64,000 nt of DNA from assembly GCA_000004985.1 (NCBI GenBank), contig GG738847.1. The stretch is one strand, 5' to 3'. A model generated the notes under the pieces. The model ran no database searches. It saw only the letters and a list, made by a program, of their open reading frames with translations, and was not told where the DNA came from. Position 1 is the first letter of the stretch. Every line of letters starts with the position of its first letter. Below are positions 9,157-64,000 of this stretch, piece by piece. The position numbers and the translations under genes were made by a program. The DNA is from Naegleria gruberi. Taxonomy: Eukaryota.

Positions 9157-9163
9157 TGTTAAT

Positions 9164-9169
9164 AATAAA
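9164..9169 (+). terminator. AATAAA poly(A) signal candidate, 8 nt after the stop of the 6859..9156 gene.
   Basis: The hexamer 'aataaa' lies directly downstream of TAG 9154-9156. The next gene's ATG is at 9245, so the spacer is about 88 bp. Confidence 0.3.
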
Positions 9170-9244
9170 CACAAAATATTGCACAAAGTTAATAGTTGCA
9201 ATATATAAATAATAATAGTTAATTTTTCCAAAGCCTTTTAAAAA

Positions 9245-21524: not shown

Positions 21525-21815
21525 TTTTTTATAACAATCAAGTTCCACTGTGCATTCAACAAGCAGGTTAGTCTAGACCTTCTCTTCATCAAATAATAAG
21601 AATAGACTAATGTTCATCAAAAATGTTAGTTGAGTGTTGTTAGAATAGACAAGTGTTGGTGTAATTTTGATATTAGTATAAAGTTTCATCCCATCATCAG
21701 CATCAACATGAGAATAATCTATTAAATTTTTGAATATTGTGTGATGATGCAAATTTTAAAGTACAAAAAAATATTTGAATATTGACCCAACAACAAGCAA
21801 CAACAATACTTAACA

Positions 21816-24146
21816 ATGGGTTTTGATAAGAATACTACCGTGTGTGTTCGGAATTTAAGTCCTGAAGTTACTCAAAAGATAGGTTTGATTTTAAATTCAT
21901 CATTTTCTTACAGACAATGTTTACGATTTGGAAAAGTTCTTCCGATTGCGAGTAGGTGATGTAAAGAAAGTAGTACTTGTTACGGATAAACAAACAGAGA
22001 AGAGCAAGGGATTTGCATTTGTTGAATTGTACGTTTTTACTAATAGTTTTTGATGAATTAAATCTGTGGATAGTCCTATTGCAATTTTGGCAAGTGAATG
22101 TTTGAGCAAGTGTAATGGAGCTTCTTTGAATGAAAAGACAATTACTGTTAGACCATATACCGATAAGAAGGAATCTTTGGATAAAAAGAAATCAACCAAG
22201 GAAAAGAAGGAAAAGAAACCAAAAGAAAATGATGTCTTGAGCAAGGATGATCCATTCTATGTTAGTTCAAGTGACGATGAAGATGAAGAAGAAGAAGATA
22301 AACCAGATAAGAATGGAATTTTCCCTAACAGAGTTTTAGTGGTTGCCAGACTTGCAAAATCTATGAATTGGGATCAAGCTATGCAAGCTCTCCAAGAAAA
22401 GTTCAGTAAAATTGGTAAACTGAATAATATCAGAATGCCAAAACAGGGAAGGTTAGTAATTGAATTGTTAAAAATTATACTGAACTCTAATTTCTATTCA
22501 GTAATCACAAGGGATATGCTTTTATCGAATTTAGAAAGGCAAAACATGCCAAGAGAGCTTTGGATTGGGCCAAAAAGAATACAAAGATGAGTGTAGCTTG
22601 GAAAGTTGACCGTGATCAATATGTCAAAAAGAAGCAAGACGCTTTCCTTAAAAAGAAGGAAGAAGAATTCGATAAGGAACAAGAAAAATTCCAAAAACAC
22701 ATGAAAAAGTATACTGAAGGAGAAAAATCTGACGATGAAGAGGATGATGATATTGAGGAACCTGAGGAATATTTTGGAGAGAAGGAAAAGGAATCTAAGA
22801 GTAGTTTGGATGAATTATTTGATGGAGAGGAAAAGGAAGAATCCGATGATGAAAAGGATGATGCTGACGCAGATGAGGACAATCAAGATGATGATGTCGA
22901 AGAGGGTGATGAATCTGATGAGGAGGATCAAGATGATGACATGAGTGTTGGCGAAGAAGATGCTGATGAACAAATGGAAGATGCCGAAAAACCAGAAGGA
23001 GAAGAAGAATCTAAGGAAAAGAAGGAGCAAACAGCTGCTGACTTTAAAAAGACAGTTTTCGTCCAAAATTTACCATTCCAAGCTGGTGTAGATGAAATTA
23101 AGGCCATATTTGAAAAGCACTATGGTTTGGTTGCCTATGTTGCCATTGTTGCCAAGACTGATGGTTTATCAAGTGGTAAAGCTTTCGTCAAATTCAAGAG
23201 ATTCAAGGATGCCAAGAAATGTATCAGAGAAGCCGAAGGAAATCTCATTGAAAAACAACCAGAAAAGAAGAAGGCCTCTGAAAAGATTTCCAAAGAACCA
23301 GAAGAAGAAGAGGAAAGAAATGTTGGTGAAGTTCTTTTGGATGGTAGAAAGTTGCTCATTGCTAGAGCCATCTCTAAGCAATCATCCCAAGAAATTAACA
23401 AGAAGAAGGAAAAGAAGGACGATCCAAGAAATTTGAGATTGGCCAAAATTGGTTTCATTGCTGCCAACAGTCCAGAGGCTAAGGACATGCCAGCTGAACA
23501 CTTGAAGAAGATTCAAAAGAATTGGGCTGAAAAGAATACCAAGCTCAATAATCCAATCTACCACATTTCTCCAACCAGACTTGCTATTCAAAACTTGCCA
23601 AAATCATGGACTGACAAGGATTTGAAGAATCTCGTTTTGGATAAGATTAAATATGATGAAGCTTTGGGTAAAGGAAAGAAACCAAAATTGATTCAAGTCA
23701 AGATTGCTAAGGATAAGGATAGCAAGCAAAGCAAGGGATTCGGCTTTGTAGAATTTGAAAAACATGAAGCTGCTTTGTGTGCTCTCGAAAGACTTAACAA
23801 TAATCCAAAAATTCTCAATCCAAGAGTCAAAGATAATAAGGTTGCCTCAGCAGCTCGTCTCATTGTCGAATTTGCAGTTGAAAATACTATGAAATTGACC
23901 ATTCTCCGAAGGCATCAAACTAACTCTCACAGAGAGAAGGACGATTCTAACATGATATCAGAATTTATTAAGAATAGATACGATCAATCATCCTCATCTT
24001 CAGCTGGTCGTTCCAGACCACCATCACGTGGAGGTAATTACAATAGAAACAATGATAGAAATCAAAAGAGACAAAGAGGTGGTAATGATAACAAACGAAA
24101 ACGTCAAGATAATAATTTTAGAGGTGCAAAGAAGACCAAAAAATAA
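21816..24146 (+). CDS. Four-RRM nucleolar-type RNA-binding protein (Nop4/RBM28-like). Four exons: 21816..21882, 21914..22028, 22074..22451, 22502..24146, about 734 aa.
   Basis: RRM1 reads TVCVRNLSPEVTQK|DNVYDLEKFFRLRVGDVKKVVLVTDKQTEKSKGFAFVEF. RRM2 has the RNP1 motif KGYAFIEF. RRM3 reads TVFVQNLPFQAGVDEIKAIFEKHYG..GKAFVKF. RRM4 reads RLAIQNLPKSWTDKDL..SKGFGFVEF. Long acidic D/E linkers sit between the RRMs, and the C-tail is basic and R/G/N-rich. Donors are GTTTGA, GTACGT and GTTAGT. Confidence 0.65.
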
Positions 24147-40272: not shown

Positions 40273-40416
40273 GAATGAAGGAATAAATTTTGTGACAATC
40301 ATTTTAGTAATTCTACATTACAATAATAGTAATTTATATTTCTAATTAATCCTTAAAGTCAATTAAATTAATTGTTAATATTATATTTAAATTATAAAAA
40401 TTTAATATTAAAAAAA

Positions 40417-41439
40417 ATGCAAACACCACTCAACATTAACGTAGTCAAATCGTTGGGTCTAGGAAAAGTCTATAAAGGACACTCTAAAGAAATAAATGGA
40501 ATGGATTTCTTTAGAGATGGAAAATCACTTTTATGTTCATCCGATGATGATAATATTACATGGTTTGATTGTACAACTCTTACTCCGAAGAGTGAACCTT
40601 CTAAAACAATACCCAGCAAAAAGTATGGATGTAGTCTAGTTAAATTTACACACTCTGAAGATGCTTGTATTCATGCTTCTAACAAGGAAGGATTAAATGA
40701 TGATATAAGATATTTAAATATACATAATGGAAATTTTCTCAGATACTTTAAAGGACATACAAAGAAGGTTGTCTCCTTGTCCATGTGTCCTATTGATGAT
40801 GGTTTTGCATCAACATCACTTGATAATACTTTACGATTGTGGGATTTGAGAAAATCATCGGAAACACACAAATGTGCATTTACAGGAAAACCTGTTACTG
40901 CCTATGATCCTAAAGGATTGGTACTGGCAGTTACTACACCGCCTGGTGTTATCAAATTATATGATGTCAGAAATTTGGACTCGCCATTTTCCACTTTTGC
41001 TCTCACTTTTCAAGAAACTCCAGATTATTCTTCCATGCTTTTTTCACCAGATGGAAATTATATTACAGTTGTTTCATCAGATTCTATATCGCTAATTGAT
41101 GCTTTCAATGGAAAGGAATTATTCAGAAAGACCAATGATGAAATTAGTGTCCTCTCAGAGGAAGATAAGGCATTCTATACGAAAAATAATTTCCCACTTC
41201 CCCAAAGTTCAGGAATTTCTCAAACTGGTGCTTCATTCTCACCAAATAGCGAATTTTTATTTGTTGGAACAGAAGATGGACGACTGCTCACAATTGAAAC
41301 TAGTTCAGGAAAATTCTGTCACTCATTCACAAACACAGATTTCAGACACAGCGGTGAAGTGAGTGCTTGTTTCAATCCACAATATTGTATGTTAGTGAGT
41401 GCTTGTCAAGCTGTTTGTTTCTGGGTTCCATCCATGTAA
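40417..41439 (+). CDS. WDR82: WD40-repeat protein WDR82/Swd2 (COMPASS / PP1-PNUTS subunit) homolog, 340 aa.
   Basis: The sequence is near-collinear with human WDR82: KVYKGHSKEINGMDFFRDGKSLLCSSDDDNITWFDC ([36 protein letters not shown]), ..DIRYLNIHNGNFLRYFKGHTKKVVSLSMCPIDD.. and ..NTLRLWDLRKS..KGLVLAV.. The true ATG is at 40417 (MQTPLN); the track start is upstream. Confidence 0.7.
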   Translation: MQTPLNINVVKSLGLGKVYKGHSKEINGMDFFRDGKSLLCSSDDDNITWFDCTTLTPKSEPSKTIPSKKYGCSLVKFTHSEDACIHASNKEGLNDDIRYLNIHNGNFLRYFKGHTKKVVSLSMCPIDDGFASTSLDNTLRLWDLRKSSETHKCAFTGKPVTAYDPKGLVLAVTTPPGVIKLYDVRNLDSPFSTFALTFQETPDYSSMLFSPDGNYITVVSSDSISLIDAFNGKELFRKTNDEISVLSEEDKAFYTKNNFPLPQSSGISQTGASFSPNSEFLFVGTEDGRLLTIETSSGKFCHSFTNTDFRHSGEVSACFNPQYCMLVSACQAVCFWVPSM

Positions 41440-41573
41440 TGTTGAGACTCTATAAAATTAAAATAATTTATTTTCTGAATTGCAATTCATCCAAAGCATG
41501 CATGTAAGCCCTTCCAGTGGAAATTCGAACAAATCAAAAAAAATTAAATACTTATTTTTAAAATTTAAAAAAA

Positions 41574-43098
41574 ATGTCGTTAAATAACGAAGTTTCGGAT
41601 CAAACACAAAATATTGTGAATACACTCGTGTTGGAGTATCTTCTCACGGTGGAGAATCAGGACGACCATAATGCACAATATCCTTCCCATCAGCACTTTA
41701 TAGAAAATATTCAGCAACATTATGATGATGGTCATATTCCGATTAGGGTGAGAATGTGTCTTCAACAATTTAAAAAAACCATGAAAGAAGTGGAGCAATC
41801 TAGGAATATTGATCCAGAAACATACAAGAGGAGAGTATTGAATAATATTGATGTAATCAGATCAATTTTATCGGAAGTACAAGAGGATGAATTTTCATCA
41901 ATATTTGTGGGAGCTTCCTTTGAAAAATCAGAATTTATTTATAAGATCACAAAGTGGGAAGATGATTTGAGAAAGAATATTGAAAATGGGGAAGATAGAG
42001 ATAAAGCAGCTGGTAAATTGTTAGATTATGTGAGAATATTGGCCAATTCATTGGTTGTTCCTCGAATTGTTTCCATTGTTTCAGATAGTTTAAATAATGA
42101 TATTCGTTCCATTGGAAGTTTCATGTCTGAGGCCATTAGTGAAATTCCTCAACAAGATGAGCCACCAACTCCTCCAAGAGAACAAGAAGAATTGAGACAA
42201 ACTCTCAATATTCTTACTCCCTTCTCAGAGGCAAAGAAACTCTCCTCACGTATTTCAGCAGTATCTAATGGATCATCAACTCCAGATATTCCACCTCCAG
42301 GACTCAACTCTACACAAACCATTATTTGTGATTCTGATGAAGAGAGTCAGCCATCTCAATTATTCTTGGAAAAACCAAACATTTTTAGATTAACAAACCC
42401 ATCCAAGAATGGACGTCATTCTGCCACAAGTTCTTCCAATGCTGCTGTTGTACCTTCTTTTACTGATTCTTCCACACACAGTAATAATGGTAGTATAACA
42501 CCAATAAGCGATGAAAATAATAACAATATATTCTCCGATGAAACTGTAATTGAGCAACAACCTCCTCCTCCAAAAAAGAAGAGAAAGATTGGAAATATTA
42601 AGCTTTCAAAGGGAGAACTTGTAGAAGCTGTCAAAAGTATAGCAAAGAAGGAAAAGAAAATTGGCATGTCATTCACATTCAAAACCAAGAAAGCATGGGA
42701 TTTTATTGAAAAGAGAGTTTATGGAGATGATGTTTCCATACTTGGTGATTCAATGCTAGAGGAAGATACCAGAGAACCAGCATTTTCTCCTGAAAGATGG
42801 AAGAGAAGAGTAAGTTATTGTAAATTGATATTTTTGAAATATTCAACATATATATTGACATATTTAAACAAATTAAAAGGATGGAAAAGCTGCCAGATAT
42901 TGGACCAAAGATGAATTAAAAGCTCTATGGGAAGGATTCCAAAATTATGGAAACGATTTTGAAGCAATTTATTACACTTATAAGGATCGATTCCACATGA
43001 CTAGACATCCAGGTTCTCTCGGCAAGAAATTCAATCGAACATTGAAACCTTTAATTGTTGATGATGAAATAGATTTTGATCAAATACCTGATGAGTGA
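41574..43098 (+). CDS. LisH-motif plus C-terminal SANT/Myb-like domain nuclear protein. Two exons: 41574..42819, 42880..43098, about 487 aa.
   Basis: An N-terminal LisH-like motif reads TQNIVNTLVLEYLLTV. The middle is S/T/P-rich with a KKKRK NLS. Exon 2 encodes DGKAARYWTKDELKALWEGFQNYGNDFEAIYYTYKDRFHMTRHPGSLGKKF, a SANT-like motif (W..E...L.....YG..F..I). The 60-nt intron has a GTAAGT donor and AAAAG acceptor, in phase 0. Confidence 0.5.
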
Positions 43099-43694
43099 GT
43101 GCTCTCACTTAATTGACTCAATTATAAGAATATCTATGCTTTCTGATTCCAATTGTTGTGCTGTAACAGATTTATTACTAGTACCATAAGAATCGAATAG
43201 ATCTAATTATTTGTTTAATAATCAATGTTGAGAAAGAATAAGAGAATTGTTGAAGGGACCACAGAGAAAAAGTCTTGAAACCCGCTTTTGCTCACCTTCC
43301 TCATTGTAAAGTAGGAACGTTTTTTCACCGCCAAACCTTTCGTCTTGCCTTTTCGAATAAACTGTACACACAACTCTACAGAAAAAAAATATCAAACCAC
43401 CAACCTCCTTTTTACTGTCAAACGTCATCACAACAACTACAGCTTCATCTACAGTCGCGTTACACAATTAGTATGTAAAATTTCTATTTAATATTAAACA
43501 AAAATCATTAATCCACTTTCGAATAATTATTTCTTTCATCATCCGAACAAAATGTCCATCACCAACGACTATGATTAATCAATATATCAAATTCATGTCT
43601 TCCTTCTTCCTCTCTATGGACAACAAACCACAACAACACTAACAACATCATTCACCATCATCAATCCGAAACTAGACTAAATTCCTTTGACAAT

Positions 43695-46600
43695 ATGCTA
43701 CCAACAGCAGCTGCTTCCCACAATAACTCTGGTGCAAGCAATAACTCCTCCTCCAACAACAATAATAACACAAATGGTTCCAATAGTCCCATGATTTCAT
43801 CATCATTACCCGTTCGTCACGTCCACAATGGTTTACCAGCTCGACATTTGACTATGGGTACTGGTGCTACTACTACTAACACTTCCACCACAACCAACAA
43901 CAACACCACCACAAGTAGTGCTACTGGTAGTGGTGGTAGTGGCAGCAGTGTCATTGGTGGTGGTAGTGGTAGTGGAACAATGAATCAATCCACAACAGCT
44001 GTTCCTCAATATCAACAATATTTCACAATGTTACAATCGATGGCTTCAAATTCTTCATCTTCTGCTGGACTTCCCAATTTACCATCTACAAGTTCAATAA
44101 TGGCCATGCATGGAATTCCATCCTCGAATAGTTCAATCATGAGAAAAACTTCATTTTCTGCAATTTTGGCTGGAAATGCTCCTAAAAGTGTGAATTTACA
44201 AACCTTGTCAAGTCAAATTGCAACTCCTCAATCAACAATTCAACCAAAGAAACATAATTCACCTCCTTCTTCGACTTCTACTGCCAATAATAATCAAATG
44301 TCACCTGCTTTGGGTGTCATTTCAACACAAAGTGCACAAAATAGTTCAGAATTAGTTGCTTCTGGAACTGTTCCTTCAAATTTATTGGAATCCGCATTGA
44401 ATAATGTTTCTAATAATGGTAGTGTTGGAATGGTTGGAATGGATCACCAAGATGTTTCAAATGGTTCAAATGGTGGAGTTTCCAATGCACTGAAACAAAT
44501 ACCAGAGAATATGAGACCTGTACCAGTTAGTAATTTAGAAAGTCAACAGGCCTCTCCTGCAGTTTCCACTCCAAAACCAAGAAAACCAAGAAAGAAGAAG
44601 GGAGAAGAAACTCCCTCCTCACTCAGCACTACACCAAATAGCAGCAGTGGAACAACTGATAGTACTACTGTCTCCTCTCCACAGACTGCCGATGAAGACA
44701 GTTCCCTTACACCCAACACTGAGAAATTATCCAAAGGAAGAAGCAAAACCTGCAAACGATGGACAGAAGAACAGAACAGACTCCTCAAGGAAGCAGTCAT
44801 TAAATATGGACCTAGAAATTGGAAAAAGATTGCTGGTGAAATTTGTGGAGGAATTTTCACAGCAGATCAATGTAACCAGCATTGGCATCGTGTTCTACAT
44901 GTAAGTTTTTTCTAAAAAGAAAGTTTTCAAATTTAATCTAATCATACATTGTAAACAACTTCATATAATTTACTTGTAATTTAATGCAATTTAAAACAGC
45001 CACGTATTATTAAGGGTGAATGGACTCCAGAAGAAGACAATCTCCTAATTGAAAAAGTTGAGGAATTTGGTGAATCAAGTTGGACCAAAGTTGCTGAATT
45101 TCTCGCTGGTAGAACCGATATTCAATGTAGACATCGTTACTTTCAAAAGAAGAAGGAGAATGATACTGGTAGAAGAAAGAGTGTTACTTCCATTTCCTCA
45201 CCATTCATGGGAGGATCTACAAGTTCACCAAGTTTGGGACAAAGCTCAGTTGCCTACGATCTCTCTCCAATGCTTGGCTCCTCTGTAGGTAACACTGCTG
45301 AATCTACTCAGGCCATTCTCAATAATGCACTCATGAGTGGTGTCAATTTCCCATCTCCATCGTTGGGTATTTCTCCAAGTTCAATCTTGACTGGTGGTTC
45401 AACAAATACCTCAAATTTTGTACATCAACATCGTGTAGTTCCTCCACTCTTTTCTGCTCCATCCACTGTTCCACTCCAGGAGAGATTGAAAGGAGATTCA
45501 GTTGTGTTGGGCTCATCGAGCACTCCAACAATGAGTTCATCTAGCTCACCATTCCTCTCATCAAATTTGAATGAAATTCCACCCTTCCCTGAGAGTAAAA
45601 AGAAGCAGAATCAATACTTTTATGTTGAAAAGAATGGATTGGACGAGAGTGATTTCACACCCCCATTAGCTACCAGTTCAACATCTCCAGTGTTGGCCAG
45701 TTCTGTAACCATAGATTCTACTCCATCGATGGACAAGAAGGAACATGTCAAATCAAGTTCCACCTCTAATATTAACGAAAATTTATTGTTGTGTGATGAA
45801 GAAGATTTGTCAACTCCAAATATTGAAAAGGATTTGGATTCAATTAAGAAGAAGACAACAACAGCAAGCAATACTCCACTCATGAAGAGTTCATCATCAA
45901 ATATGATGATTACCGATGATGATGACGACATGGATGAAGATGAAGAAGAAGCTCAATTGACCATTGATGAAATGGACACAGATAAGGCCAGTATTCCACA
46001 ATCCAAGCCATTATCACTACCTTCTCACCACCACGCCCAACACTCTGCTTCAACAAGTACTCCTGATGTAATGAAGAAGGAAATTCCAGAATCTCCACAG
46101 CTAATGAACTCTCCAGCCATTGTCGGCGCCTCTCCATCTGTAGCCAATGAAAAACCAAAGAAACGTTCCAGTGCATTGAATAGAATGAGAGCGAATATCA
46201 ATGTTTGGGTACCATTCAGTGAGAGTGAGGAAATTGTTTTGAGAAGAGAAATTTCCAAACAATTGAACCAACATTCAGGTTCTTCCTCCTCTGCTTCTTC
46301 AGCTAATACTCCAGTTTTGACAAGTGGCAATATACTTTCTACTGTTGATCCAAATGCTCCAAAACCAATTCAAGTCATTTCCTTCTCGAACCATAATGAG
46401 GATTTCTTAGATCGAATTGATTTTGTAACTATTCTAAGGGAGAATACTTCATCTTTCCATCCATTGAGAACTCCAGTTTCACTTAAAGTTCACTCTCAAG
46501 CTTTGAGACAAGAATTGGGAGATTCAGTTTTAATTGACGAAAATTTCAAAGGAGAAACACCTCGTTCACTCTATGAAAAGAGTAATTCGCATTCGTGGCT

Positions 46601-46949
46601 TGCATCCAGTAAGAATGCAAGAACTAGCAACAGTGGAACAAATGCAAGTGGAAGCACAAATGAAACAAAGCCAAGAAGAAGAAAGAATCATATTGATGCT
46701 AGTGGAGATAATCTTACAGGTAGCTCAGCATCATCTGGAAAACCACCAGTTCCTGGAAGAAAGAGAAAGCAAAATGTTCCAATTTCAAATTCACCTGCAA
46801 TGGCCATGCAAGCAAATAACAATGGTGCTGACTCATCTTCTGTTTTGGAACCTTCTCAGAAAAAGACTAAAGTTGACGAACCTCCACAAGCTGCCAATTC
46901 GACATTCCTTGTTTTATTACTGGGTAAAGGGAGGACCAAAAGAAACTAG
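43695..46949 (+). CDS. R2R3-type MYB transcription factor with long low-complexity flanks. Two exons: 43695..44900, 45000..46949, about 1051 aa. An extra 3' exon is possible (see findings).
   Basis: Myb repeat 1 (KRWTEEQNRLLKEAVIKYGPRNWKKIAGEICGGIFTADQCNQHWHRVLH) ends exon 1. Myb repeat 2 (PRIIKGEWTPEEDNLLIEKVEEFGESSWTKVAEFLAGRTDIQCRHRYFQKK) begins exon 2. The 99-nt intron has a GTAAGT donor and AAAACAG acceptor. The HRVLH|PRIIKG junction reproduces the canonical R2/R3 linker. Flanks are N/S/T/Q-rich. Confidence 0.7.
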
Positions 46950-47159
46950 ACAAATTCAACCATCCAAGATGTGTCTTCCTTTGGACACAACCTTATTTGG
47001 ATTAGTTGCAAAAATCAGAGAGGAATTATCACTCGATTATGATCCTCAATTGATTTGTGATTTTATGCCAGTGAGGAATTATGGTCAAACTTTACAGGAA
47101 TTAATGGAAGAGAATGAAATTAAGATTAATGAATTGTTGATTCAATATAAATAAATTGA

Positions 47160-50100
47160 TAAGTTAATTCTACCATTCAAATTAAGAAGAGAAATTGTAT
47201 TATTGCAAAGAAGTGTTCATAGTACTGGTGTTCAAGCCAGTCATTACTAGAGCAACGACCATCAAATCCTAAGGATTCTGAGATATTACATTTGTCACAA
47301 ATACTGTCATTACCTAGTAAAATTGAGTTGTGGAGATTAAAATAGAGGAGTCTTTTCTGATAATAATACAAGAGTTTCTCCAAGTGCCATTATCTAATTG
47401 GCCCAACTCAGTATGTAGTTTTTCTGGATCGCTGAGTTTCAATGATAGCCTTTCTAAGGTTGGAGACAGGTTTGTGATACACAAGAAGACCCATTCATTA
47501 TCTGTGGATTGAAGTAATATTTCAGATCTTTCATTGTAGTGGCAGCATTTTTCATCAGTTAATATGTAGTTTCACCCTTTTGAGCAAGTCGATGCGACTT
47601 TTTGGGTAATAGGAGAGGTAGAATTGACAAACCTACAGACACGTGGAAAGGATGAAAGCCAAGACACCTTGAGATTTATCACACTTAGATAACGGCTTTA
47701 GAGAGCCTGTTGTCACATCCAATTCTTTTCTTATTACTAAATAATGAATTTCCACAAAAACTATTATGAAAAGAAAACAATATTGATGATGGTTCAATAA
47801 TCGGATGATGATTTGTATTTTCCAACCTTCCATAGTAGTAAATTACTATTATTACTATCCATATTCACAACATGTTGAGGTTTGAAATTCTTGAAGTCTC
47901 TCTTTTCCTGTGTGGATTTGCAATTCTCCAAATACTAATTTCAAAAGCACCGAAAAGTTTTGAAACTTTCTAGGATGATACAATCATGATTTAAAACATG
48001 ATGTTGCCAATGATGTTCTTGTTGAATGTTATCCTTCATGATGAAAATATCTATTTAATAAATTGATGATGAAATTATTCATGGATGTAAAACATTTAAT
48101 CATTAATCAAAATATAATGTAATAATATATGGTGTGTTCATGATAATGATGGAGTTTTCTCCCAATTATAAACTGATGGTCATTCCGTATTGGTGCATTT
48201 TCCGATCATTTTTTTCTATTAAACTTTATTGTTAATTTATATTTTAATAATAATAATAATAATAGTAAACAAATGCTACATTCATATGAAGAGGCAAGTT
48301 ATAACCCAATCACATATAACAAACTTTCATTCAATTGAATAATGTTTTTTTAAAATGAAATTGCAACTATTTTGCATTTTCAAGATTGTTAATAACTTTC
48401 ATTAACTTTCGAATATATTGAATTAAGGTTGAATTAAAAGAGAATTATGATGAATTTAAATTTTATACAATGATCATATTGATTGTTGACTTTTGGTGCA
48501 GCATAACGAATTTGGAAAGAAATAGTTGCAGTATCGTGTCCTTTTTGAATGCATTTTTACCTTCCTCATTCTGCTTGTTGAATTCTGGATTAGTCTGATA
48601 TCGTCCATTTAATTAGAAAGGAAGGTGAAACTCTTAGCAAGCCCAAATATAAGTCATTCACTTATATCATTGATTGTACTTTGAAGTAGCAATAGATTTT
48701 ATACAATGATTCGAAAACGTTAAGAGTTTCAATTCGAATATTGTAAAAGTTGAAGCACTAATTATCAACATTCATGGTATGGTTCAATTATAGTTATTCC
48801 TCCTGAGATTCAAAAAAGTTTATCAATTCAATGATTGTAAACAAGCATTACTGCGAATTATTAGAAACATTTCTAATAATTTTCACGTTGTAAACTTGTG
48901 TGTTGACCATTTCACTCTTGAATATTACAAAACAGTCTAGCTGACCGGTAGGGAGGTTTAAATTCAAAAATGGTCGGTTTCCTCACATGGGAAGTGAAAT
49001 CTTTTGAATTCGAATGTCACCTCTGAATGCTAAACATTTTATACAATCAAATAATACTGTAAATTGTTTACAAAATATTGAATGATGGACAGTTGATATT
49101 ATTGTTGTGTTGATGGATCGAATATTGTGTTAGATTACGGTATGGCTAATGACCATTTCTTCTTGAAAAATATTCGAATCTCTCAAACATGTCCACTTTC
49201 AAATAGCCGTTCAATATTAAATATTCAATTATAATAATATTCAATTGTGCATGAACAGTATTGCCACTTCATTATGCTGTAGAATACACTTCATTAACAT
49301 TTTAATATTTCTTTCTTCCAAATGCAATGTATAGTATTTAACCGAAATAGCTCGCTCTCTATCCAACACAATCCAAGAAACAATGATGTTGGAACTGAAG
49401 GAGCACTTCTATCACTGACTCAACTCAATGAACTGTTCATTGCCAACCATACAAAGCATTCAGTGAAAAACAGTTCAAAAGAGAAAACGTGTTGATCTAA
49501 GATTAGATATCAAGTTTGAAAGTTTATAACACGTTTTTCACGTGTTTTTCATTGTTGGTGAGTGGTATGATATTTGATATTTGATTTTGAAATGAACTTG
49601 TTTTAATCACATCCACAGGGGATATTTAAAATGGATCTTTGTATGGAGGTAGAAGCGCTAAGAAGGGGTGATAAAATACCGTTTTGCAACATCCAATAAT
49701 TGTTATTTTGTAAAATGTCAAGTCAACTGGCAAAACACCTTTTCGGGTAGTGGTTAACAATTTGGATGATTTAATCACATTGTAATAACGTGCATAAAGA
49801 TCTCCTCCTTTACATGGCCAATTCAGAAATACCTCACCATTTCATTGATTAGAATAACCAACTCTTATTGAGATAAGAGCACATTCAACAATTGGACTAA
49901 TCTCTCTTACTCCTACTACCATCTCGATTAGTTGTTTTTGAATATTAATATCCAATATCCATAAGTTATAAATTTAACAATTGATTTCCAATGTAATAAT
50001 ATTAAACATCTGACCAAGTATACAGCAAGAGAATCACCCATCTCTCTTGATGTTACCATTTAACAATTTGATGTGATGATACCAAATTAATAATATTTAC

Positions 50101-51300
50101 AATTGTAATACTTGTTGTATTGAAACGAGCACATTATTTACGATACCGATCCAACCATTGATGTTAGAGTTGAATAAGGTCTTTGAACAAACACTTTTTG
50201 CTGTAATCAAACCCTTGGATCCAAATGGAAGAATGGAACAGTGGCAAAATAAGGAAGAGGGTCTCCTTAAACCTTTTCGCCGTTTTTTTTCGTGAATCTT
50301 TTTCGATCCCTTATTTGCGTGTTTTGTATGAAACTTACAGCCCCTTAATATCGAAGGTATTCATTCTCTCGAGTTGTATATCTCAAATATTTCCTCAAAA
50401 GAAACCGAGTGAGTGACAATATAGAGGTAAAATTGTTAAGTTCATTTCCAAAATATGTTATTCATGAAAACAATGAGAAATATTATTATTGAATAATCCA
50501 TTCAATAATATTTAATGTGAATATTGAGAAGTAATTTCCAACACGTTATTGTTGGAATAATCTATTCCTTAAAAAATTTGGAATATTGAGCAGGTGATGG
50601 CAAATGATCGCTTGCCTTTTATTCCAGATTCTTAACACATTTCCCTCATTGTGTTGTCATTCCCAGTAAGGGACTTTCTACTCTTTGGCATTGTATTGAC
50701 AAATTGACGTTTGGCCAATCGACAATCAAATACCAATATTCGCATTCGACACCTGCTTTGGTCAATTGATGGATGGCGGGAGAAGTCTATCACAAAATAT
50801 TTTGCTTTAAAGCAGCAATAGCAAGTCACATTATGGGATCAAAAAGACGCAACGTGAAGGTACTAAATTTTCTTGGTCGCACCGTATTGATCACACAATG
50901 ACGCACAAGCAAAAAACCATTATGAGAACGAGTTTAGCAAATGGAGGTTGTGCTGAAAAGTTTCGCGGGTCTTTACCACTGCCAATTTTCGACTTTAAAA
51001 AAACCACCAACACCAAACTCACTTCTCCATCCACCACATTTCTTTGTTGTGCACAACCGAATAATTATTGAGAGCTAACATCTACATTGATCATCATCTC
51101 TCTCTGTTCTAGTAGTACAATAAGAAAAATTTTGATTCTCTCCCTCAACAACTCTAGTCGACTCCACCTGATAGATTCAACAACGTGTATTGTCAAGTAC
51201 CCATCACGAAGTTTTTTCAATTCTATCAAACTAACACAACGGCCAACAACCATAGACGTCCATCATTGAGAGTTTTTATCAAACATCAATACCGATACTA
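47160..51300. other. ORF-poor intergenic interval of about 4.1 kb, the only long non-coding stretch in the window.
   Basis: No ORF of 60 aa or longer occurs in any frame between 47834 and 50224. The dispersed short repeat 'ttttatacaat(g/c)a' occurs at about 48461, 48696 and 49036. An inverted repeat aaaacgtgtt(49488)...aacacgtttt(49537) is followed by the CACGTG palindrome. A (TAA)n microsatellite lies at 48246..48262. Confidence 0.5.
48246..48262. repeat. (TAA)n microsatellite.
   Basis: The run taataataataataata lies in non-coding DNA. Confidence 0.6.
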
Positions 51301-51355
51301 GTATCTATTGAAAACGTACTATTCATTTTCCAATCATCTCTATAGAAAGAAAACA

Positions 51356-52774
51356 ATGACACACAATAATACTGTTGTACAATCAACAAGTACCACTACT
51401 ACTAATACTACTACTTCTAGTAATTCTAAACACTATGAAGGCGAATTAATTAATACAAGATCAAGAGCTTCTTCTAATGTAAGAAACTCTGAGCGATCAC
51501 GATCTGTTAGTAATGCAAGTGTGTCGAGCACTACAATTTCCTATCCAAATCAAACTAGTAATAATAATGAACACCAATACGAAGCTCCTGTATCATCATC
51601 AACCAATCTAACTCAACCTGAATCCCTCCACCACCACCAACAACAAACTGTATCACCACCATCTAGAGCATGCCAACCAACCCTTTCCAATACAACATCT
51701 TCTAACGTCCAACAACTTAATTTAATGCATCCTACTCCTCAACAACGATTGACGATAGAAAGACTCTTACAAATACCACCAGAATCAGTACAATCACGTA
51801 ATCCAAAACTCTATGATTTACTAGTACAATTAAGAAGACAATATATGTGGCAAGCTGTTACTACTCCAATAACAACAACAACAACAACAGCTGCTGTAGA
51901 CAAGTCATCCACTACTAATGCACATCCTTTAGAGAAGATGAAACAAGAAGATGCAATGGTCTTCTCTTCGCATATTGATGAAATTTGTGCTTGTGTCAAT
52001 CAGCTCTTAGAAGATTTAGATGTTGAGGAGTATGGTTTGGGACAAAACCTAGGCTATAAGGCTGTTTGGGTACAAGAAGAAGAATTAAAGGCAAAAGCTA
52101 AACGTGAAGTACTTGCAGTACCTGAAGATCAAATGCAAGACGAAGATTGCGAAGAAGAGTGCGAAGAGGAAGAATTTGAAGAAGAGGTTGAAGAATCTCT
52201 TGATCAAACTCCTCAACCTTCAGCATCCACTGCTCCAATTCTTTCCAACAATGATGATGGTTGTGATGAAGATGATTCTTGTCCATCATTGATGGAAGAT
52301 GAGGATGAAGAAGAAGAATCTTCTTGTGATGCTGAAGAAACAACACAAGCAACTGTCAATGCTCAATCACAAGATGGATCTAGTACCAAACTCCAAGAAT
52401 TCTTTAGACAGTTAGAAAATGTTGAACCAATTCCAAACGGTAAATTATCCTTTTTCCAAAACCACCATTTGGTAGTTGGAAAGTTTGACAAGAAGTTGCT
52501 CGTTGAGAACAATGTTCTGTCTTGTACTGTAATGAAGAAGAGTACCCTCAATGTTGTAGTTCATAGAAGATGTACTCGTCTGAAGAAGGACAATGACAGA
52601 TTCCCATTCGATGCAACTTCTGGAAACTATCATGACAGAAGAATACTCAAGAAACAATCTCTTGCAAAATCAGTTGTAAGATTTGCCAAAGTTAAGGTTG
52701 ATTTTGGACAGATTGTTGAAGAAGTTATTCGTAAATCAACCAGCCCTGTTTGTGACGAAAACGATAAAAAATAA
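51356..52774 (+). CDS. Hypothetical low-complexity protein, about 472 aa. It has T/S/N-rich tracts, an acidic D/E/C-rich block and a C-terminal globular region.
   Basis: The ORF spans 51308..52774. The first true ATG (MTHNNTVVQSTSTTTT...) is at 51356; the track start is a TTG. No recognised catalytic motif. Confidence 0.4.
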   Translation: MTHNNTVVQSTSTTTTNTTTSSNSKHYEGELINTRSRASSNVRNSERSRSVSNASVSSTTISYPNQTSNNNEHQYEAPVSSSTNLTQPESLHHHQQQTVSPPSRACQPTLSNTTSSNVQQLNLMHPTPQQRLTIERLLQIPPESVQSRNPKLYDLLVQLRRQYMWQAVTTPITTTTTTAAVDKSSTTNAHPLEKMKQEDAMVFSSHIDEICACVNQLLEDLDVEEYGLGQNLGYKAVWVQEEELKAKAKREVLAVPEDQMQDEDCEEECEEEEFEEEVEESLDQTPQPSASTAPILSNNDDGCDEDDSCPSLMEDEDEEEESSCDAEETTQATVNAQSQDGSSTKLQEFFRQLENVEPIPNGKLSFFQNHHLVVGKFDKKLLVENNVLSCTVMKKSTLNVVVHRRCTRLKKDNDRFPFDATSGNYHDRRILKKQSLAKSVVRFAKVKVDFGQIVEEVIRKSTSPVCDENDKK

Positions 52775-57393: not shown

Positions 57394-58030
57394 GTTTTAC
57401 AAGTTAGAGTTTCATACGGGTAGACTTTCGTGTTCTTTGATTCGAATGGAGTCAATGATTTTTTTTTTGACTTGTGGCGTGTGACTGTCACTGCTAAGCT
57501 ATCTAAAGAAGGCAAGAACCCACATAATGTGTGAATGAGAGTAAATCTTGACCGATTTGAGTGAATGGACCGCTTACAATATTGTAAGATATTAACTCGT
57601 AAAATTTTCCCTTTGAAAATAATGCGAATCAAATTAACATTTTTACAAATTTTTATACAATAACACTTTTGAATCGTTTGAGTTTCACAGATCAGTAAAT
57701 AGTATTCTGATTTGTTTAAACATGATTTACAACCCTTATTACAAAAAAATGAAACAACTGAAGATGATGATGTAGGATACGAACCAAAAATTAAAAGGCT
57801 AAAATCTGATCATCCAACCAATGTTAATATCACCATTAATTATTGTCATCAGTACTACCATATATTTAACCACACGATTGATATTTATAGATGGAGTAGA
57901 GAATCACTAGACAAATGCAATGCTCCGAAAAAAGCTTGCATATTTCGTTTGTGGCGGAATGATTTCATCCATTGACATATCATTATTGTGCCAAATAATC
58001 GAAGAAAATATAATCTCAATGTAATAATTA

Positions 58031-58585
58031 TTGGTAACCAGTGATGGATTAACTTTGCTTGGTAAGGAAACAAGCAATTATATTCTATCAACAGATGAAT
58101 GTTTCAAAAGTTATCACTATTACAAACAATCTAATAGATTGTTCTCTATCAAAGATAGCTCTATATTTGAGATCGATATTGAGATTGAAAAACACTCTGT
58201 GGTCAATCTTTTATCTAAAGATATTAGGGATGCTGTGGAAACATTAGGAGGAAAATCCAAAACATTTTCAAGCGTTCCAAAAGTTCCACTCTCTATTAAT
58301 TATTTCCAACAAAGAAATTATTAGTTTTATCATTCACATGATATTGATGCTTCAATAATTTTGAATGTAGCCCCTGGAATAGATAGTAGTTGTAAAAGAT
58401 TGAATGTTAATGATATTGGTGAGCCAACCATAAAAGATAAGCCATTTAAATTTGTGTTTACTTACCGAATAATTCAAGATACAGACCTAATATTGATTGG
58501 TAGCAATCTCACAAAGAAAAACTATGGTATGGAAGGGGTTTTGGGATTGTTTCATGTTCAAAAGTACGCATTTTATATTAGTTAA
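58031..58585 (+). CDS. Possible small two-exon gene (58031..58321, 58371..58585), unknown function. Weakly supported.
   Basis: ORFs 58031..58324 and 58361..58585 sit in an otherwise empty 1.2-kb spacer. They could join via a 49-nt intron with an atypical GTTTTA donor and TGTAG acceptor. No domain recognised. Confidence 0.2.
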
Positions 58586-58586
58586 T

Positions 58587-59645
58587 TTAATTCTTTGTAA
58601 AACTCTTCTTTACACTCTTTCTAATTTGTTTCCAAGTTCCCTTAATTCCACCATAACATTGAATATAATCAACCAAGGTCAATACAATAGTATACAATAC
58701 AAAGAAGATAATAATTGAAGCACAAACAGCTGAGCATACACTGACCACTTGATTTGCCTTTTGTTTGACACTAACTGCAAATAAGGCCCAAGAAAAGACA
58801 CTTGCAAATACGAAATCACGTTTCCAATGGAGAAAGATAATTCCCAAACAAACAATAACACCTTCCAAAATGCATGTCCAAATTACATTAGAAACTCCCC
58901 ACAATGATCTCTCATAAATATTCGATTCTGTGGTGGAAAAGTGAGTAGTGAGAGTAATGGCAATATTAATAGTGGTGGCAACACTAATCCAACCCATATA
59001 CAAACTAATCATTGGTTGAACAATCCAATATTCCCAGAAATTGCATTTTCTTGTCATGGTGAAAGAATTTACAAATTTAGCAAGAATTGAATTTCCTTGA
59101 ATGGTAGGTTTAGAATTTTCCTTTTTTGATGGTTCATAATAATGCACATTCACTCTCAAATACATTAAAATCAAACTAGCCAAAATTCCAAACATGAAAA
59201 CCAAACTCAACCACAACAATCCAATATTTCCACGTGCAGAATATTGCCAAGCAAACATCCACAAACAATTAAAAAGGAAATTGACAGGTAATAGGATTGA
59301 AATCTTTTCATTCAACAGTTCATTATTTCTTCCCATAATCAAGCTCTGAACAGTATTAATAACAATTACCAAGGCAATGAATGTATAAATTAATCCCCAA
59401 ATGGAAAATGCATAACCTGCAGGAGTGAGTGGAGTTTCATATTCATCAGAAACCTTTCCAGTTGGAATGTTATTCAAAATTCCAGCCGCTCCCAATGCAT
59501 TCACTATAATTACCAATATAAAACCAATGATATTGAGGGCAGGAATTAATCGGAGTTGAATCTTTTGAAATTTTGATGGAGATGGTGCAGAATTTGTGTT
59601 TGCTGATTCGTTCATCATTGGATCTTCATTTGTTTCTTCATACAT
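58587..59645 (-). CDS. Multi-pass membrane protein, 352 aa, with TspO/MBR-like signature blocks.
   Basis: ATG at 59645. There are at least 7 hydrophobic helices. TPAGYAFSIWGLIYTFIALVI matches the TspO 'P..W.F..vW..LY' block. EYWIVQPMISLYMGWISVATTINIAI matches the 'LL.PYL.W..fA..LN' block. Confidence 0.45.
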   Translation of the reverse strand: MYEETNEDPMMNESANTNSAPSPSKFQKIQLRLIPALNIIGFILVIIVNALGAAGILNNIPTGKVSDEYETPLTPAGYAFSIWGLIYTFIALVIVINTVQSLIMGRNNELLNEKISILLPVNFLFNCLWMFAWQYSARGNIGLLWLSLVFMFGILASLILMYLRVNVHYYEPSKKENSKPTIQGNSILAKFVNSFTMTRKCNFWEYWIVQPMISLYMGWISVATTINIAITLTTHFSTTESNIYERSLWGVSNVIWTCILEGVIVCLGIIFLHWKRDFVFASVFSWALFAVSVKQKANQVVSVCSAVCASIIIFFVLYTIVLTLVDYIQCYGGIKGTWKQIRKSVKKSFTKN

Positions 59646-61063: not shown

Positions 61064-61516
61064 TTTTTTTTTGAAAATTCCTAATATTGGAATCACGTTT
61101 TGTTGTAAACTTGAAACTCTTTTTCACGTTTTGGATTTATTGAAGATTGAAATTGTTCTCAATCTTTTTTAATCTAATAATTTTATTGTAATGTTTAGTC
61201 AACCCGACTAGAGTCGGAAATCAAACTGAAATATCTTTATCTCCAAGCACATGGAATCCAAACTAAATTTACAACAACTATTCAATACAGTAAATAGTAG
61301 TGTGTGTTTTTGACTTTACTTTTTCCAAACATTCTTAAAAAGTTAACCTTCCAAATCCTCTTCTCCAAAATTATCATCATCACCAAACTCCAACCAACAC
61401 CAAACAACACAATCAGCAAACACCATCAAACAATCAACGTTATTAATTTTTGCTTTGTGTTTGTGTGCTGAGATTTTCAATTCATTCGTGCTTGGACCTC
61501 ACAAGCTTAAAAAAAA

Positions 61517-64000
61517 ATGTCCACTCGCAAAAGTTGTAAAAGAGAATCATCATCTCTGATAATGATGATGATGGTGCTGATGGTGGTAGTGTTCATGTCA
61601 TGCTCGGTGTTGTTGGTTGAGGGACAAACGTGTGCAGCCAATAAGAAGTATCCGAATAGTTATACTCATTGTGTGGGATTGACTTGTGGAGGAACAACAC
61701 CAATGATCTTTGTTAATAATCCAACATCACCAACCAGATCGGTTAGGAGAGAATTATCTCATCATCATCTTTAACTAGTAGTAGTAGTAGCACTTCAGAA
61801 GAAATTGTATTGAGAGGAGATTTGCCTCTCACTGTTGGTTGTACATGTGATCCACTGGTTGATATTGGTGCTCGTTTTACTCAGTGTGATAATTCAACAA
61901 ATACTAAATCAGCCTTCTACTTTTACAAACCACCTGCTGTATGTACAGGATATGAATTACCAACTCCAATCAGTGGTCTTCCATGTGATTTGGTTTGTGA
62001 GGAAGGCACTCGTTTGGATGTTAACTCAAAGAAGTGTTTACATTGTGAGCCTGGTAGTTATGCCCACAGTGGTGAATTGTCCATGATTAGTTGGACTTCT
62101 ACTGGTCTCGATCTTGATACCAATACTGGTATGTTTTTAATAATTTAATATTTAATCTAATTCTCTCTCTATTAATTCATTCATTCTGATCCTCGATCCT
62201 CTATCAAATCCTACGATTGTTATTATCTGATCTTACATTATTATTAATTAATATTTACAGAATCACCTGTTTTCCCACCACAAATGCGTTCCTATTGCAG
62301 TAATTATGCTTGGAGTTCAGCATGTTCACCTTGGCAACCAAGAGGTGATTATGTTGACAGTGGTAATAATAGAGGAAAAAACTTTGCAAAGAATTACCTT
62401 GAATTTTATGTTGAAATTTCACAACTTGCTGTTGATAGTGGAAATGCTAGTGTTTCTTTTGAATATCAAGTTGATGCTGAACAATTTTATGACTTTTTCT
62501 TTTTCGGAATTGATAGTACTCAAGATTTCCTCATGAGAGCAGATCAACAACTTACTTGGAAGAAGCAAACATTTAAATTCAATAAGGCTGGTTTCCACAC
62601 CTTGATTTGGGCCTATATTAAGGACAGTTCAAAGGATGAAGGTGAAGATAGAGCCAAGGTTAGAAATATTGTTATCAATGGTTCTGTTGATAAGGAAGTT
62701 GTTCTCAGATGTGAACTTTGTCCTAAGGGATCTGCTTCTGATGGTACTGTTCCATGTCAAAAGTGTCAACCAGGTACCTATGCTGATGAAGAAGGTTTGG
62801 ATCAATGTAAGCCATGTGCTCCTGGAAAGACTTCTTTCTCTGGATCTACAGATTGTTTCTTGGCTGATATTCCTTGTACTTCAGCTGATTATTCATACAG
62901 ATATGGATCCACTTGTGAAAATGATTTGAGAACTATGGAATATTTCTGGGTTTCACCAATCATTTGTAATGCATCCAATCCAGATAGCGCTCCATTACCA
63001 GCATTATCTAATACTAAATGCTCTGAAACACTCAAATGTCCACTCGGTATGAAAAAGTCCATTCAAGGAAATATTCAATCCTGTGTTTATTGTGAACCTG
63101 GTTCATTCAATGATCATGATAATCGTAATAATAATGAAACTGAAACTGATACTCAACTCAGATCAATTCAACATGCTGAAACTGAATGTGAAGCTTGTCA
63201 AACCAATGAAGCTTCCAAATATAAGGTTGTTCATATTTATGATGTTGTAGCTGGAATTTCATCACCATATGTTTCCAGTTGTACTGGTGAATGTATGTCT
63301 GCTATTGGTTGGAGAGATCTTGGTGCTGTTGGTTTGGATTCGGGTACTAGTAATGGTAAATCAGTTGCCAAAGTCTTGTTCCAAAACATGCCAACTGTAA
63401 GTATGGAAGAAGATGTTACTCCATATTTCAGTACCAGATTGTTCCTTTCATGCCCAGCTAACAGTGGAAATAGAGTTGACTTTTTAATTGATGGTGTTGT
63501 AAGAAAGTCAGTCTTTTGTGGAGGATGCATTCCATTCGAACAAGATGAAAATGAAATTGAGGAAGATTGGATGACTGTCGATGTTCCATTAACCCTTACT
63601 GAACGTAAGAAGCTTCCATTGACCTTTGAAGTTTACTTTGTTTCTGTTAATCCTGTTTCTACTGTTAATGATACTTACAATTGTGATCGTGCTGTTATTT
63701 CAAAGGTTTCACTCTATGGTGTTGCCAATCAAGGAGGTGCTGTAGTTTGTAAGACATGTGCAGGTGGTAAATATCCATTGTTGGATGAATGTAAGGATTG
63801 TGCTGCTGGTTCTTATTCACCTCCTGGTAGTGCCAGTTGTGGTATTTGTAATGCTAATCAATTCAGTTATAATGCTAGTGATCGTTGTTATGATTGTGGT
63901 GAAGGACAAACTAGTGCTAAGGGAAGTCAAGCTTGTTCATGGAAAGGCCAAGTTTGTGAAAATACTCATAATGTTGGTGGTGCTGACAAGACATTCAATA
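61517..64000 (+). CDS. Secreted or type I Cys-repeat protein, ELAPOR/EIG121 (KIAA1324)-like, 5'-complete and 3'-truncated by the window end. Exons: 61517..61741, 61798..62128, 62261..>64000.
   Basis: Signal peptide reads MSTRKSCKRESSSLIMMMMVLMVVVFMSCSVLLVEG. There are repeated C-x2-C-x-PG-x-Y/F-(A/S) modules (CELCPKGSASDGTVPCQKCQPGTYADEEGLDQCKPCAPGKTSF; CVYCEPGSFND; CKTCAGGKYPLLDECKDCAAGSYSPPGSASCGICNANQFSY..). Blocks FEYQVDAEQFYDFFFFGID and WVSPIICN parallel ELAPOR. Introns of 56 and 132 nt have GTTAGG/GTATGT donors, with phases checked. The last exon is absent from the ORF track because it has no stop in the window. Confidence 0.5.

Follow-up and report, generated by a model that had tools for sequence, protein, structure and literature searches.

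A 4.2-kb non-coding spacer in Naegleria gruberi as a possible extended 5′ regulatory region of an orphan heterolobosean gene

Why does a compact genome carry more than 4 kb of non-coding DNA in front of one gene? In Naegleria, coding sequence makes up 57.8% of the genome and genes average about 1.7 kb in length (PMC9928731, Table 1). In the 64-kb stretch of N. gruberi DNA analysed here (contig GG738847.1; hereafter the window), gap lengths were taken from a gene map of stop-to-stop ORFs (open reading frames) of at least 150 amino acids. The largest gap was a non-coding spacer at 47155–51355, which measured 4.2 kb (47154 to 51302/51356), approximately three times the next-longest spacer, whereas the remaining gaps were all 1.27 kb or shorter (5576–6850, 20866–22057, 57396–58587 and 61123–62248). 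The unusually long (~4 kb) ORF-free interval described in a first-pass annotation of this DNA was therefore borne out. The left edge of the spacer is the stop codon (47152–47154) of an intron-containing Myb DNA-binding-domain gene on the + strand (43695–47154; identified from ORFs and by Pfam Myb_DNA-binding, E 7.6e-09), whose 3′ UTR presumably occupies the first part of the spacer. On the right lies a + strand gene of 472 amino acids (51356–52774), which is 100% identical to N. gruberi NAEGRDRAFT_78116 (hereafter 78116). This identity showed that the dictyostelid setting assumed in the first-pass annotation was wrong, and thus that dictyostelid repeat libraries are irrelevant to the locus.

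The orphan 78116 family is confined to heteroloboseans, with only nine relatives among 1.84 billion representatives, and its C-terminal region is highly conserved (alignment A1). The protein gave no Pfam match and the A1 profile no PDB match, five distant relatives scanned against Pfam returned a single sub-threshold match (MCM_C, 17 bits compared with a cut-off of 27), and the AlphaFold model (pLDDT 40) was unusable. A metagenome scan for relatives of the gene found none. In the published literature we found no paper on 78116, and no work on the intergenic architecture or non-coding RNAs of Naegleria that is relevant to the locus.

Does the spacer hold coding sequence of its own? ORF listing bore out the earlier statement that there is no ORF of at least 60 amino acids between 47834 and 50224. 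By our own calculation, such an absence is the expectation for non-coding DNA of 32% GC; with stops at ~7.6% of codons, the 85–87 amino acids reached by the longest fragments without a stop are near expectation. The hexamer coding score in the spacer reached a maximum of 0.33, with 7 of 800 windows above 0.15, compared with a mean of 0.475 and a 5th percentile of 0.229 for the in-frame coding reference. A six-frame Pfam scan of the spacer with stops masked gave no family at E values up to 1, and 3006 amino acids of concatenated stop-free fragments had no match among 5.8 billion protein clusters, a collection that draws on NCBI N. gruberi protein records among its sources. Comparison of six-frame fragments with the syntenic loci of other heteroloboseans (L001–L004) by tblastn in both directions gave noise only. 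The spacer thus shows neither the ORF and hexamer signal nor the homology of a protein-coding gene.

In each of the three Naegleria species compared, no spacer of the locus is longer than the one upstream of 78116, which measures 4.2 kb in N. gruberi, 2.5 kb in N. lovaniensis (L001) and 2.45 kb in a second Naegleria (L002/L003). The other spacers are 24–771 bp plus one of 1.7 kb in L001, and 120–280 bp in L002. The upstream neighbour of the orthologue is a different gene in each species, and the genes between ATG2 and 78116 are entirely replaced from one species to the next, which marks the region as evolutionarily fluid. In the three Naegleria species the long spacer has stayed with the gene despite these changed neighbours, but it has not done so in Willaertia magna, where the counterpart is only ~0.86 kb; the long spacer is therefore not universal in the family. 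Between the L001 and L002 spacers we detected four collinear conserved non-coding blocks of 110–260 nt, 68–82% identical and carrying indels that break any reading frame, and the remaining spacers of these two loci were almost unalignable. The blocks resemble the conserved non-coding elements that flank genes in that all four are located in the long spacer preceding the orthologue. They are unlike such elements in that their conservation was seen in a comparison of two species only, and in that nhmmer with five sister-species conserved blocks found no match in N. gruberi across the whole 64-kb window. Searching with the N. gruberi interval against L001–L004 (blastn, word size 7) returned only noise and, in Willaertia, AT-rich matches of low complexity, and exact-protein look-ups with four window genes revealed no close N. 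gruberi strain on record. The synteny comparison proposed in the first-pass annotation thus established an outsized spacer common to three Naegleria species, and no N. gruberi sequence match to the sister blocks.

The turnover of genes and the absence of a recognisable match to the syntenic counterparts in other Naegleria would suit neutral filler, that is, unconstrained DNA left behind by an ancient insertion or by a gene or mobile element that has decayed until unrecognisable, with its repeats and palindromes arising by chance or replication slippage. The N. gruberi spacer is also 1.7 kb longer than those of the other species, and its composition, like that of ordinary spacer DNA (GC 0.320, compared with 0.29–0.35 for the other spacers of the window), fits neutral DNA too. 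We nevertheless regard this origin as unlikely. No relic of a protein domain, homologue, LTR or TIR was found, and in a genome with 57.8% coding sequence (PMC9928731) we would expect kilobase-scale neutral DNA to be lost, yet the spacer is outsized in three species. A decayed mobile element in particular, one of the options raised earlier, found no support. The "dispersed repeats" of the first-pass annotation were overstated, as a blastn comparison of the interval with its own sequence and with the remainder of the 64 kb gave only matches of 13–27 nt. None of these was paired at the boundaries as terminal direct or inverted repeats, the interval has no second copy within the 64-kb window, and its tandem repeats are trivial. 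Although a few-kilobase ORF-free stretch with some short repeats is what a decayed element may look like, the spacer has no reverse transcriptase, integrase or transposase traces, no terminal repeats, no window copies and no protein homologue, and the LTR, DIRS and TRE families that had been named are dictyostelid.

Could the spacer belong functionally to the gene that it precedes? Abutting the start codon of 78116 on the + strand is a G-poor stretch (G 0.12, C 0.25) of 412 nt (50944–51355) that is free of ATG. In the interval, ATGs are 48 nt apart on average and the second-longest ATG-free gap is 177 nt, and a run of 412 nt had a P of about 0.009–0.012 in simulations. Depletion of upstream AUGs next to the start codon is common to the orthologues, which have 711 (L002), 671 (L001) and 250 (Willaertia) ATG-free nucleotides, and the L001 and L002 stretches include a perfectly conserved 29-nt element. 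Sequence statistics and the pattern in the orthologues suggest that 50944–51355 is a long 5′ untranslated leader, with transcription starting near 50.95–51.0 kb.

In our judgement the chances are slightly better than even that the spacer comprises an extended 5′ regulatory region and a long leader of 78116. Among the options in the first-pass annotation had been that of long 5′ regulatory DNA serving the gene at 51356, and with the ATG-free leader, the retention of the spacer with the gene and the conserved blocks of the sister species it is the option that fits best. In such an arrangement the last ~0.4 kb (50944–51355) would be an untranslated leader kept clear of upstream AUGs, and the remaining ~3.3–3.8 kb, minus the 3′ UTR of the Myb gene, would be promoter and upstream control DNA. 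This DNA carries short elements in clusters, namely hairpins at 50478–50674, an ACGT-core repeat at 49461–49554, a palindrome at 48856–48881 and three copies of ATTTTATACAAT at 48460–49049. We infer that these are sites for sequence-specific, partly dimeric DNA-binding proteins, through which they would act in cis on 78116 transcription. The orphan gene itself is probably tightly regulated.

The spacer contains four perfect inverted repeats with arms of at least 10 nt, compared with 0.77 expected (P = 0.004) and with one in 6.1 kb of control spacers; two of the four overlap and are therefore not independent. This excess over both simulations and control spacers argues against neutral filler. 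A perfect 26-nt palindrome at 48856–48881, AATTATTAGAAA-CA-TTTCTAATAATT, with 12-nt arms and a 2-nt spacer, is by its sequence a candidate site for a dimeric binding protein, and when the interval was simulated with Markov models, 7% of the copies held an arm of at least 12 nt. The 10-nt inverted repeat followed by CACGTG that had been noted earlier is real, with arms at 49484–49493 (AAAACGTGTT) and 49528–49537 (AACACGTTTT) separated by a 34-nt spacer, and CACGTG at 49539–49544. The emphasis placed on CACGTG was unjustified, since its four occurrences in the window are at chance level (3.3 expected). The arms are enclosed by a two-tier imperfect inverted repeat (49461–49554) containing three AACACGT(T/G) sites, one of them the CACGTG, and of the five AACACGTK sites present in the 64 kb, the interval holds four. 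As a hairpin, this repeat had fold z-scores of −2.1 (+ strand) and −2.95 (− strand).

The lowest fold z-scores came from a cluster of hairpins and palindromes on the + strand (50478–50674), ~270–470 nt upstream of the putative leader, where two sliding windows (−4.71 and −4.32) were the lowest of 204, and control spacers never fell below −3.34. The cluster consists of a palindrome with 11-nt arms (50484–50510), an 8-bp stem (50536–50557), an interrupted hairpin of roughly 20 bp (about 50575–50630) and a 7-bp stem (about 50632–50657); a bacterial promoter and terminator scan, irrelevant to a eukaryote, served as a hairpin list only. The segment 50490–50700 (+) folds to −54.9 kcal/mol (z −4.15 compared with shuffles). 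The position of the strongest fold signal just upstream of the putative leader counts towards the regulatory reading. Folding of the cluster is better on the + strand, where its stems include G-U pairs, and this would be as fitting for an RNA element as for DNA sites.

This folding bears on another explanation, that the interval is an unannotated non-coding RNA locus from which a long RNA or several small RNAs arise. In one version of it, a plus-strand transcript would contain structured segments at 48915–49034 and 50490–50700. Fold-stable windows are indeed commoner in the spacer than in control spacers (mean z −0.45 compared with −0.09; 10.3% compared with 4.9% below −2), and the conserved non-coding blocks of the sister species could be RNA genes; in palindromic AT-rich DNA, however, fold z-scores cannot tell RNA structure from DNA palindromes. 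The covariance scan suggested earlier gave no Rfam 15 family at gathering score anywhere in the window. At a permissive threshold the best match was SNORD108 (20.6 bits compared with a gathering score of 46, E = 2), and the sister-species spacers produced chance-level noise only. No tRNA was found. A scan for C/D-box snoRNAs (C box RUGAUGA and D box CUGA 55–140 nt apart, a terminal stem and box enrichment) counted 6 RTGATGA compared with 6.2 expected by length, and its sole candidate had only a 4-bp stem. The lncRNA locus offered as an option in the first-pass annotation thus gains no support from the Rfam search, and one segment of the interval is strongly structured. Overall we consider a non-coding RNA locus, in either version, unlikely.

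The other version of an RNA locus involves a recurrent motif, whose three copies, ATTTTATACAAT(G/C)A, lie on the + strand at 48460–48473, 48696–48709 and 49036–49049, spaced by 236 and 340 nt. The first-pass annotation had reported this threefold recurrence, which we confirmed, with two of its coordinates off by 1. The exact core common to the copies is the 12-mer ATTTTATACAAT, the motif can also be written (A)TCATTGTATAAAAT, and copies 1 and 2 agree at 17 of 18 nt. TTTTATACAATSA occurs exactly three times in 64 kb (48461, 48697 and 49037), always on the + strand, compared with 0.03 expected. Any 12-mer occurred at least three times in 0.2–1.1% of Markov copies of the interval (p about 0.002–0.01), which speaks against neutral filler, and unbiased k-mer enrichment at k=8–10 lay within simulation and was not significant, as neutral filler would have it. 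Given the scan of 64 kb, the statistics of the motif are post hoc and modest, and thus suggestive rather than compelling. Read on the minus strand the motif is T(C/G)ATTGTATAAAAT, which holds a TATAAAA box, a sequence otherwise rare upstream of genes in the window, so that the three copies might be promoters of minus-strand transcripts. A fourth copy, TTTTATACAAT, likewise intergenic, lies at 57651, 264 nt upstream of a minus-strand gene and in sense orientation. Against such promoters, the regions downstream of the three copies are not similar to one another and have no consistent terminator. Rather unlikely too is a stronger proposal: a multi-kilobase modular control domain, or a non-coding RNA locus with three ATTGTATAAAAT promoters, governing this heterolobosean-specific orphan gene and having, in other Naegleria species, a counterpart that bears conserved non-coding blocks.

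The spacer is also the sole multi-kilobase gene-free stretch in 64 kb, with a 300-nt GC trough of 0.22 at 48055–48354 and enriched palindromes, as might be seen at a chromosomal maintenance element (a centromere or replication origin) sited in a gene-free AT-rich island. We know of no Naegleria centromere mapped so far. This explanation is very improbable, as the overall GC content of 0.32 is that of other spacers and satellite or tandem repeats are lacking, and in the other two species the syntenic spacers have a higher GC content than the DNA around them (0.41 compared with 0.38). With a size of 2.5–4 kb, discrete conserved blocks and a leader-like segment, the spacer resembles gene-proximal DNA.

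The 4.2-kb spacer is unusual in length for a compact genome and ordinary in kind. It otherwise reads as a long intergenic region like others, with no sign of a mobile-element relic or of a novel type of element. Long upstream regions are a feature of highly regulated genes in compact genomes, and those of the Candida albicans master regulators WOR1 and EFG1 extend over several kilobases. The Naegleria spacer is like them in being an outlier ORF-free spacer tied to one gene, in its retention across species, in its clustered short elements and in its long putative 5′ leader. In contrast with WOR1 and EFG1, 78116 is an orphan without a recognisable DNA-binding or regulatory domain, and sequence conservation in the spacer was detected between the sister species and not within the N. 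gruberi lineage.

Heterolobosea are a deeply branching lineage whose promoters are thought to be compact and simple, and to our knowledge gene regulation in Naegleria is almost unexplored. If true, the control-domain or non-coding RNA reading would be, as far as we know, the first hint in this lineage of a cis-regulation that is complex, acts over long range and involves conserved non-coding elements. An upstream domain of 2.5–4 kb with an AUG-free leader of 0.4–0.7 kb, kept across species, makes a good entry point to Naegleria regulation, and could help in finding promoters, enhancers and translational control elements. The putative leader itself, of 412 nt in N. gruberi and 671–711 nt in the Naegleria orthologues if transcription starts where we infer, is like known long 5′ UTRs depleted of AUG. 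It is not a unique feature of 78116, as at least one other gene of the window, at 6859, is also preceded by a long ATG-free run, of 380 nt.

In a rough gene map built from stop-to-stop ORFs of at least 150 aa, long ORFs crowd both strands of the window, and a gap of 4.2 kb separates the stop of a gene with a Pfam match to the Myb domain (47154) from a start codon at 51356. All of the remaining gaps in the 64-kb window are 1.27 kb or shorter, and the unusually long spacer in a gene-dense region described in the first-pass annotation is thus borne out. The ORF at 51356–52771 (+) was identical over its full length (100%) to the N. gruberi hypothetical protein NAEGRDRAFT_78116 (hereafter 78116), so the dictyostelid framing of that annotation was wrong. 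GC content is 31–40% per kb in the window and 0.320 in the interval, inside the range of the other spacers (0.29–0.35). The reported lack of any ORF of 60 aa or longer between 47834 and 50224 is correct, and is the same as expected of random 32%-GC DNA. Coding sequence is reported to make up 57.8% and repeats 5.1% of the N. gruberi genome, whose genes average 1,677 bp (PMC9928731, Table 1); these values imply that non-coding DNA averages ~1 kb per gene, and the 4.2 kb spacer is therefore an outlier rather than an anomaly of kind.

The interval is non-coding. Coding potential was absent under an in-frame hexamer model trained on the long ORFs of the window: coding windows score 0.475±0.17, the top window of the interval scored 0.33 and just 7 of 800 exceeded 0.15. 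Translation in six frames with stops masked returned zero Pfam families at E up to 1, and a 3006-aa query concatenating all stop-free fragments of at least 33 aa had no match among 5.8 billion protein clusters. As this collection draws on NCBI, the source of the matched 78116 record, no protein that it records, including any TE protein, maps to the interval. Translated comparisons with syntenic loci from the other species, in both directions, gave noise only, and thus no pseudogene remnant is visible. The decayed mobile-element relic proposed earlier is left without support by the negative Pfam and protein-cluster searches, and blastn of the interval against itself and the window gave 13–27-nt matches only, which makes the dispersed repeats noted before an overstatement; tandem repeats were trivial. 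A short ORF from an ATG at 50834–50860 (MGSKRRNVK), which falls in the top hexamer window, ends at GTACTAA resembling a 5′ splice site; as an upstream coding exon it had no homologue and no support from the orthologues.

Orthologues of 78116 were found in N. lovaniensis (L001), another Naegleria (L002/L003; ENA and Logan assemblies) and Willaertia magna. The order of ATG2, the 78116 orthologue and a large F-box-like gene is conserved across species, although the genes interspersed among them are completely different from species to species. Between ATG2 and 78116 (window 40372–47154, L001 2222–6955 and L002 2435–6806), N. gruberi carries a WD40-like gene, a 446-aa gene and the Myb gene, and N. 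lovaniensis and L002 carry others; the genes separating 78116 from the F-box gene in other species are missing in N. gruberi. The spacer upstream of the orthologue is the longest of its locus both in L001 (~2.5 kb, 6955 to 9490) and in L002 (2.45 kb, 6806 to 9255, against 120–280 bp for the remaining L002 spacers). A long spacer is thus linked to 78116 across three Naegleria species; in Willaertia it is just ~0.86 kb. L001 7332–9423 and L002 7013–9158 have in common four collinear blocks of 110–260 nt with 68–82% identity, marked as non-coding by 1-nt indels and the lack of any ORF; spacers elsewhere in these loci are barely alignable. Neither blastn nor nhmmer detected the blocks in N. gruberi, which is unsurprising because the orthologous proteins are themselves only ~58% identical over their aligned part. 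This absence of detectable conservation, together with the composition of the interval, would fit neutral filler or a relic decayed past recognition, but a spacer kept beside 78116 despite the compact genome argues against such an origin, which we consider unlikely.

A leader signature lies directly upstream of 78116. The 412 nt adjoining its start codon (50944–51355) contain no ATG; elsewhere in the interval one occurs every 48 nt, and the second-longest ATG-free run is 177 nt. The stretch is G-poor (G 0.12, C 0.25), and the chance of it lacking ATG is ~0.01, both when calculated from the base composition of the stretch and when it is treated as the longest such run of the whole interval. ATG-free stretches of 671 nt (L001) and 711 nt (L002) precede the orthologues and hold a perfectly conserved 29-nt element, ACGAAGGAATCTAGCTCATCAACAGTGGT, ~300 nt upstream of the ATG; this element is part of one of the four conserved blocks. 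We read 50944–51355 as a long 5′ leader probably selected against upstream AUGs, which would place the transcription start near 50.95–51.0 kb.

The triplet reported in the first-pass annotation is present: TTTTATACAATSA, with the exact shared 12-mer core ATTTTATACAAT, has exactly three copies in the window, at 48461, 48697 and 49037, each on the + strand, compared with 0.03 expected. Any 12-mer was present at least three times in merely 0.2–1.1% of Markov copies of the interval; an unbiased 8–10-mer enrichment test was unremarkable, and the motif had been chosen post hoc. On the minus strand the motif reads (A)TCATTGTATAAAAT and includes a TATAAAA box, a type otherwise rare upstream of the genes of the window. 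Of 23 gene starts checked, only 7 have a sense-orientation TATA[AT]A[AT] in the 600 nt preceding them. A fourth exact window copy of TTTTATACAAT lies in another spacer (57651–57661); read on the minus strand as TTATTGTATAAAAA, it is in sense orientation to the F-box-like gene on that strand and precedes the gene start (57393) by 264 nt.

The 10-nt inverted repeat noted earlier is real (arms 49484–49493 and 49528–49537, spacer 34 nt). CACGTG does follow just after it, but is not enriched (four in the window compared with 3.3 expected). Four of the five AACACGTK sites of the window are in the interval, three of them inside the inverted repeat at 49461–49554. Counting perfect inverted repeats with arms of at least 10 nt and spacers of up to 60 nt, we found four in the interval, two of which overlap, compared with 0.77 expected [P(≥4)=0.004] and with one in 6.1 kb of control spacers. 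One is a perfect 26-nt palindrome at 48856–48881, AATTATTAGAAA-CA-TTTCTAATAATT, the longest in the interval and control spacers. In a 120-nt sliding-window fold scan, the interval had a mean z of −0.45 (minimum −4.71), compared with −0.09 (minimum −3.34) for the controls. The outlier was a cluster of four hairpins and palindromes at 50478–50674, 270–470 nt upstream of the inferred leader; the segment 50490–50700 folds to −54.9 kcal/mol (z −4.15).

This fold signal and the TATA within the triple motif might point to an unannotated ncRNA locus, yet no family matched and no consistent gene-like unit emerged, making this reading improbable. The covariance (Rfam) scan proposed earlier matched no family at gathering score anywhere in the window, and a tRNA search of the interval found none. 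The sole permissive Rfam match in the interval was SNORD108 (48033–48087, E=2), and C-box motif counts were at expectation; the match stems from a patch rich in ATGATG/TGATGA strings (47780–48180). A centromere or origin is very improbable.

Among the options raised earlier, the 5′ regulatory region is the best supported, and with modest confidence we regard the interval as the 5′ non-coding domain of 78116. It would comprise an AUG-free leader of roughly 0.4 kb next to the gene and, further upstream, several kb of control DNA with clustered, partly palindromic, putative protein-binding sites; the first few hundred bases of the interval presumably belong to the Myb gene as its 3′ UTR. We infer from sequence that the N. 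gruberi elements may be functional and act on transcription. The feature itself is real and its location correct, and it is best classed as a long regulatory spacer upstream of a gene, together with its long leader.

78116 belongs to a very small orphan family: a search of 1.84 billion representative proteins yielded just nine relatives, all placeable ones being heterolobosean. The C-terminal ~125 residues are highly conserved (84% identity of the N. gruberi to the N. lovaniensis protein), and the N-terminal half is divergent and of low complexity. Pfam and PDB searches gave no match and the AlphaFold model is unusable (pLDDT 40); the function of 78116 therefore provides no argument for complex regulation. 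In N. lovaniensis the orthologue is annotated as two genes, of 147 aa (L001 9490–9933) and 423 aa (10001–11272), probably through an unrecognised intron, frameshift or assembly error, since in L002 a single unbroken 623-aa ORF (9255–11126) spans both pieces.
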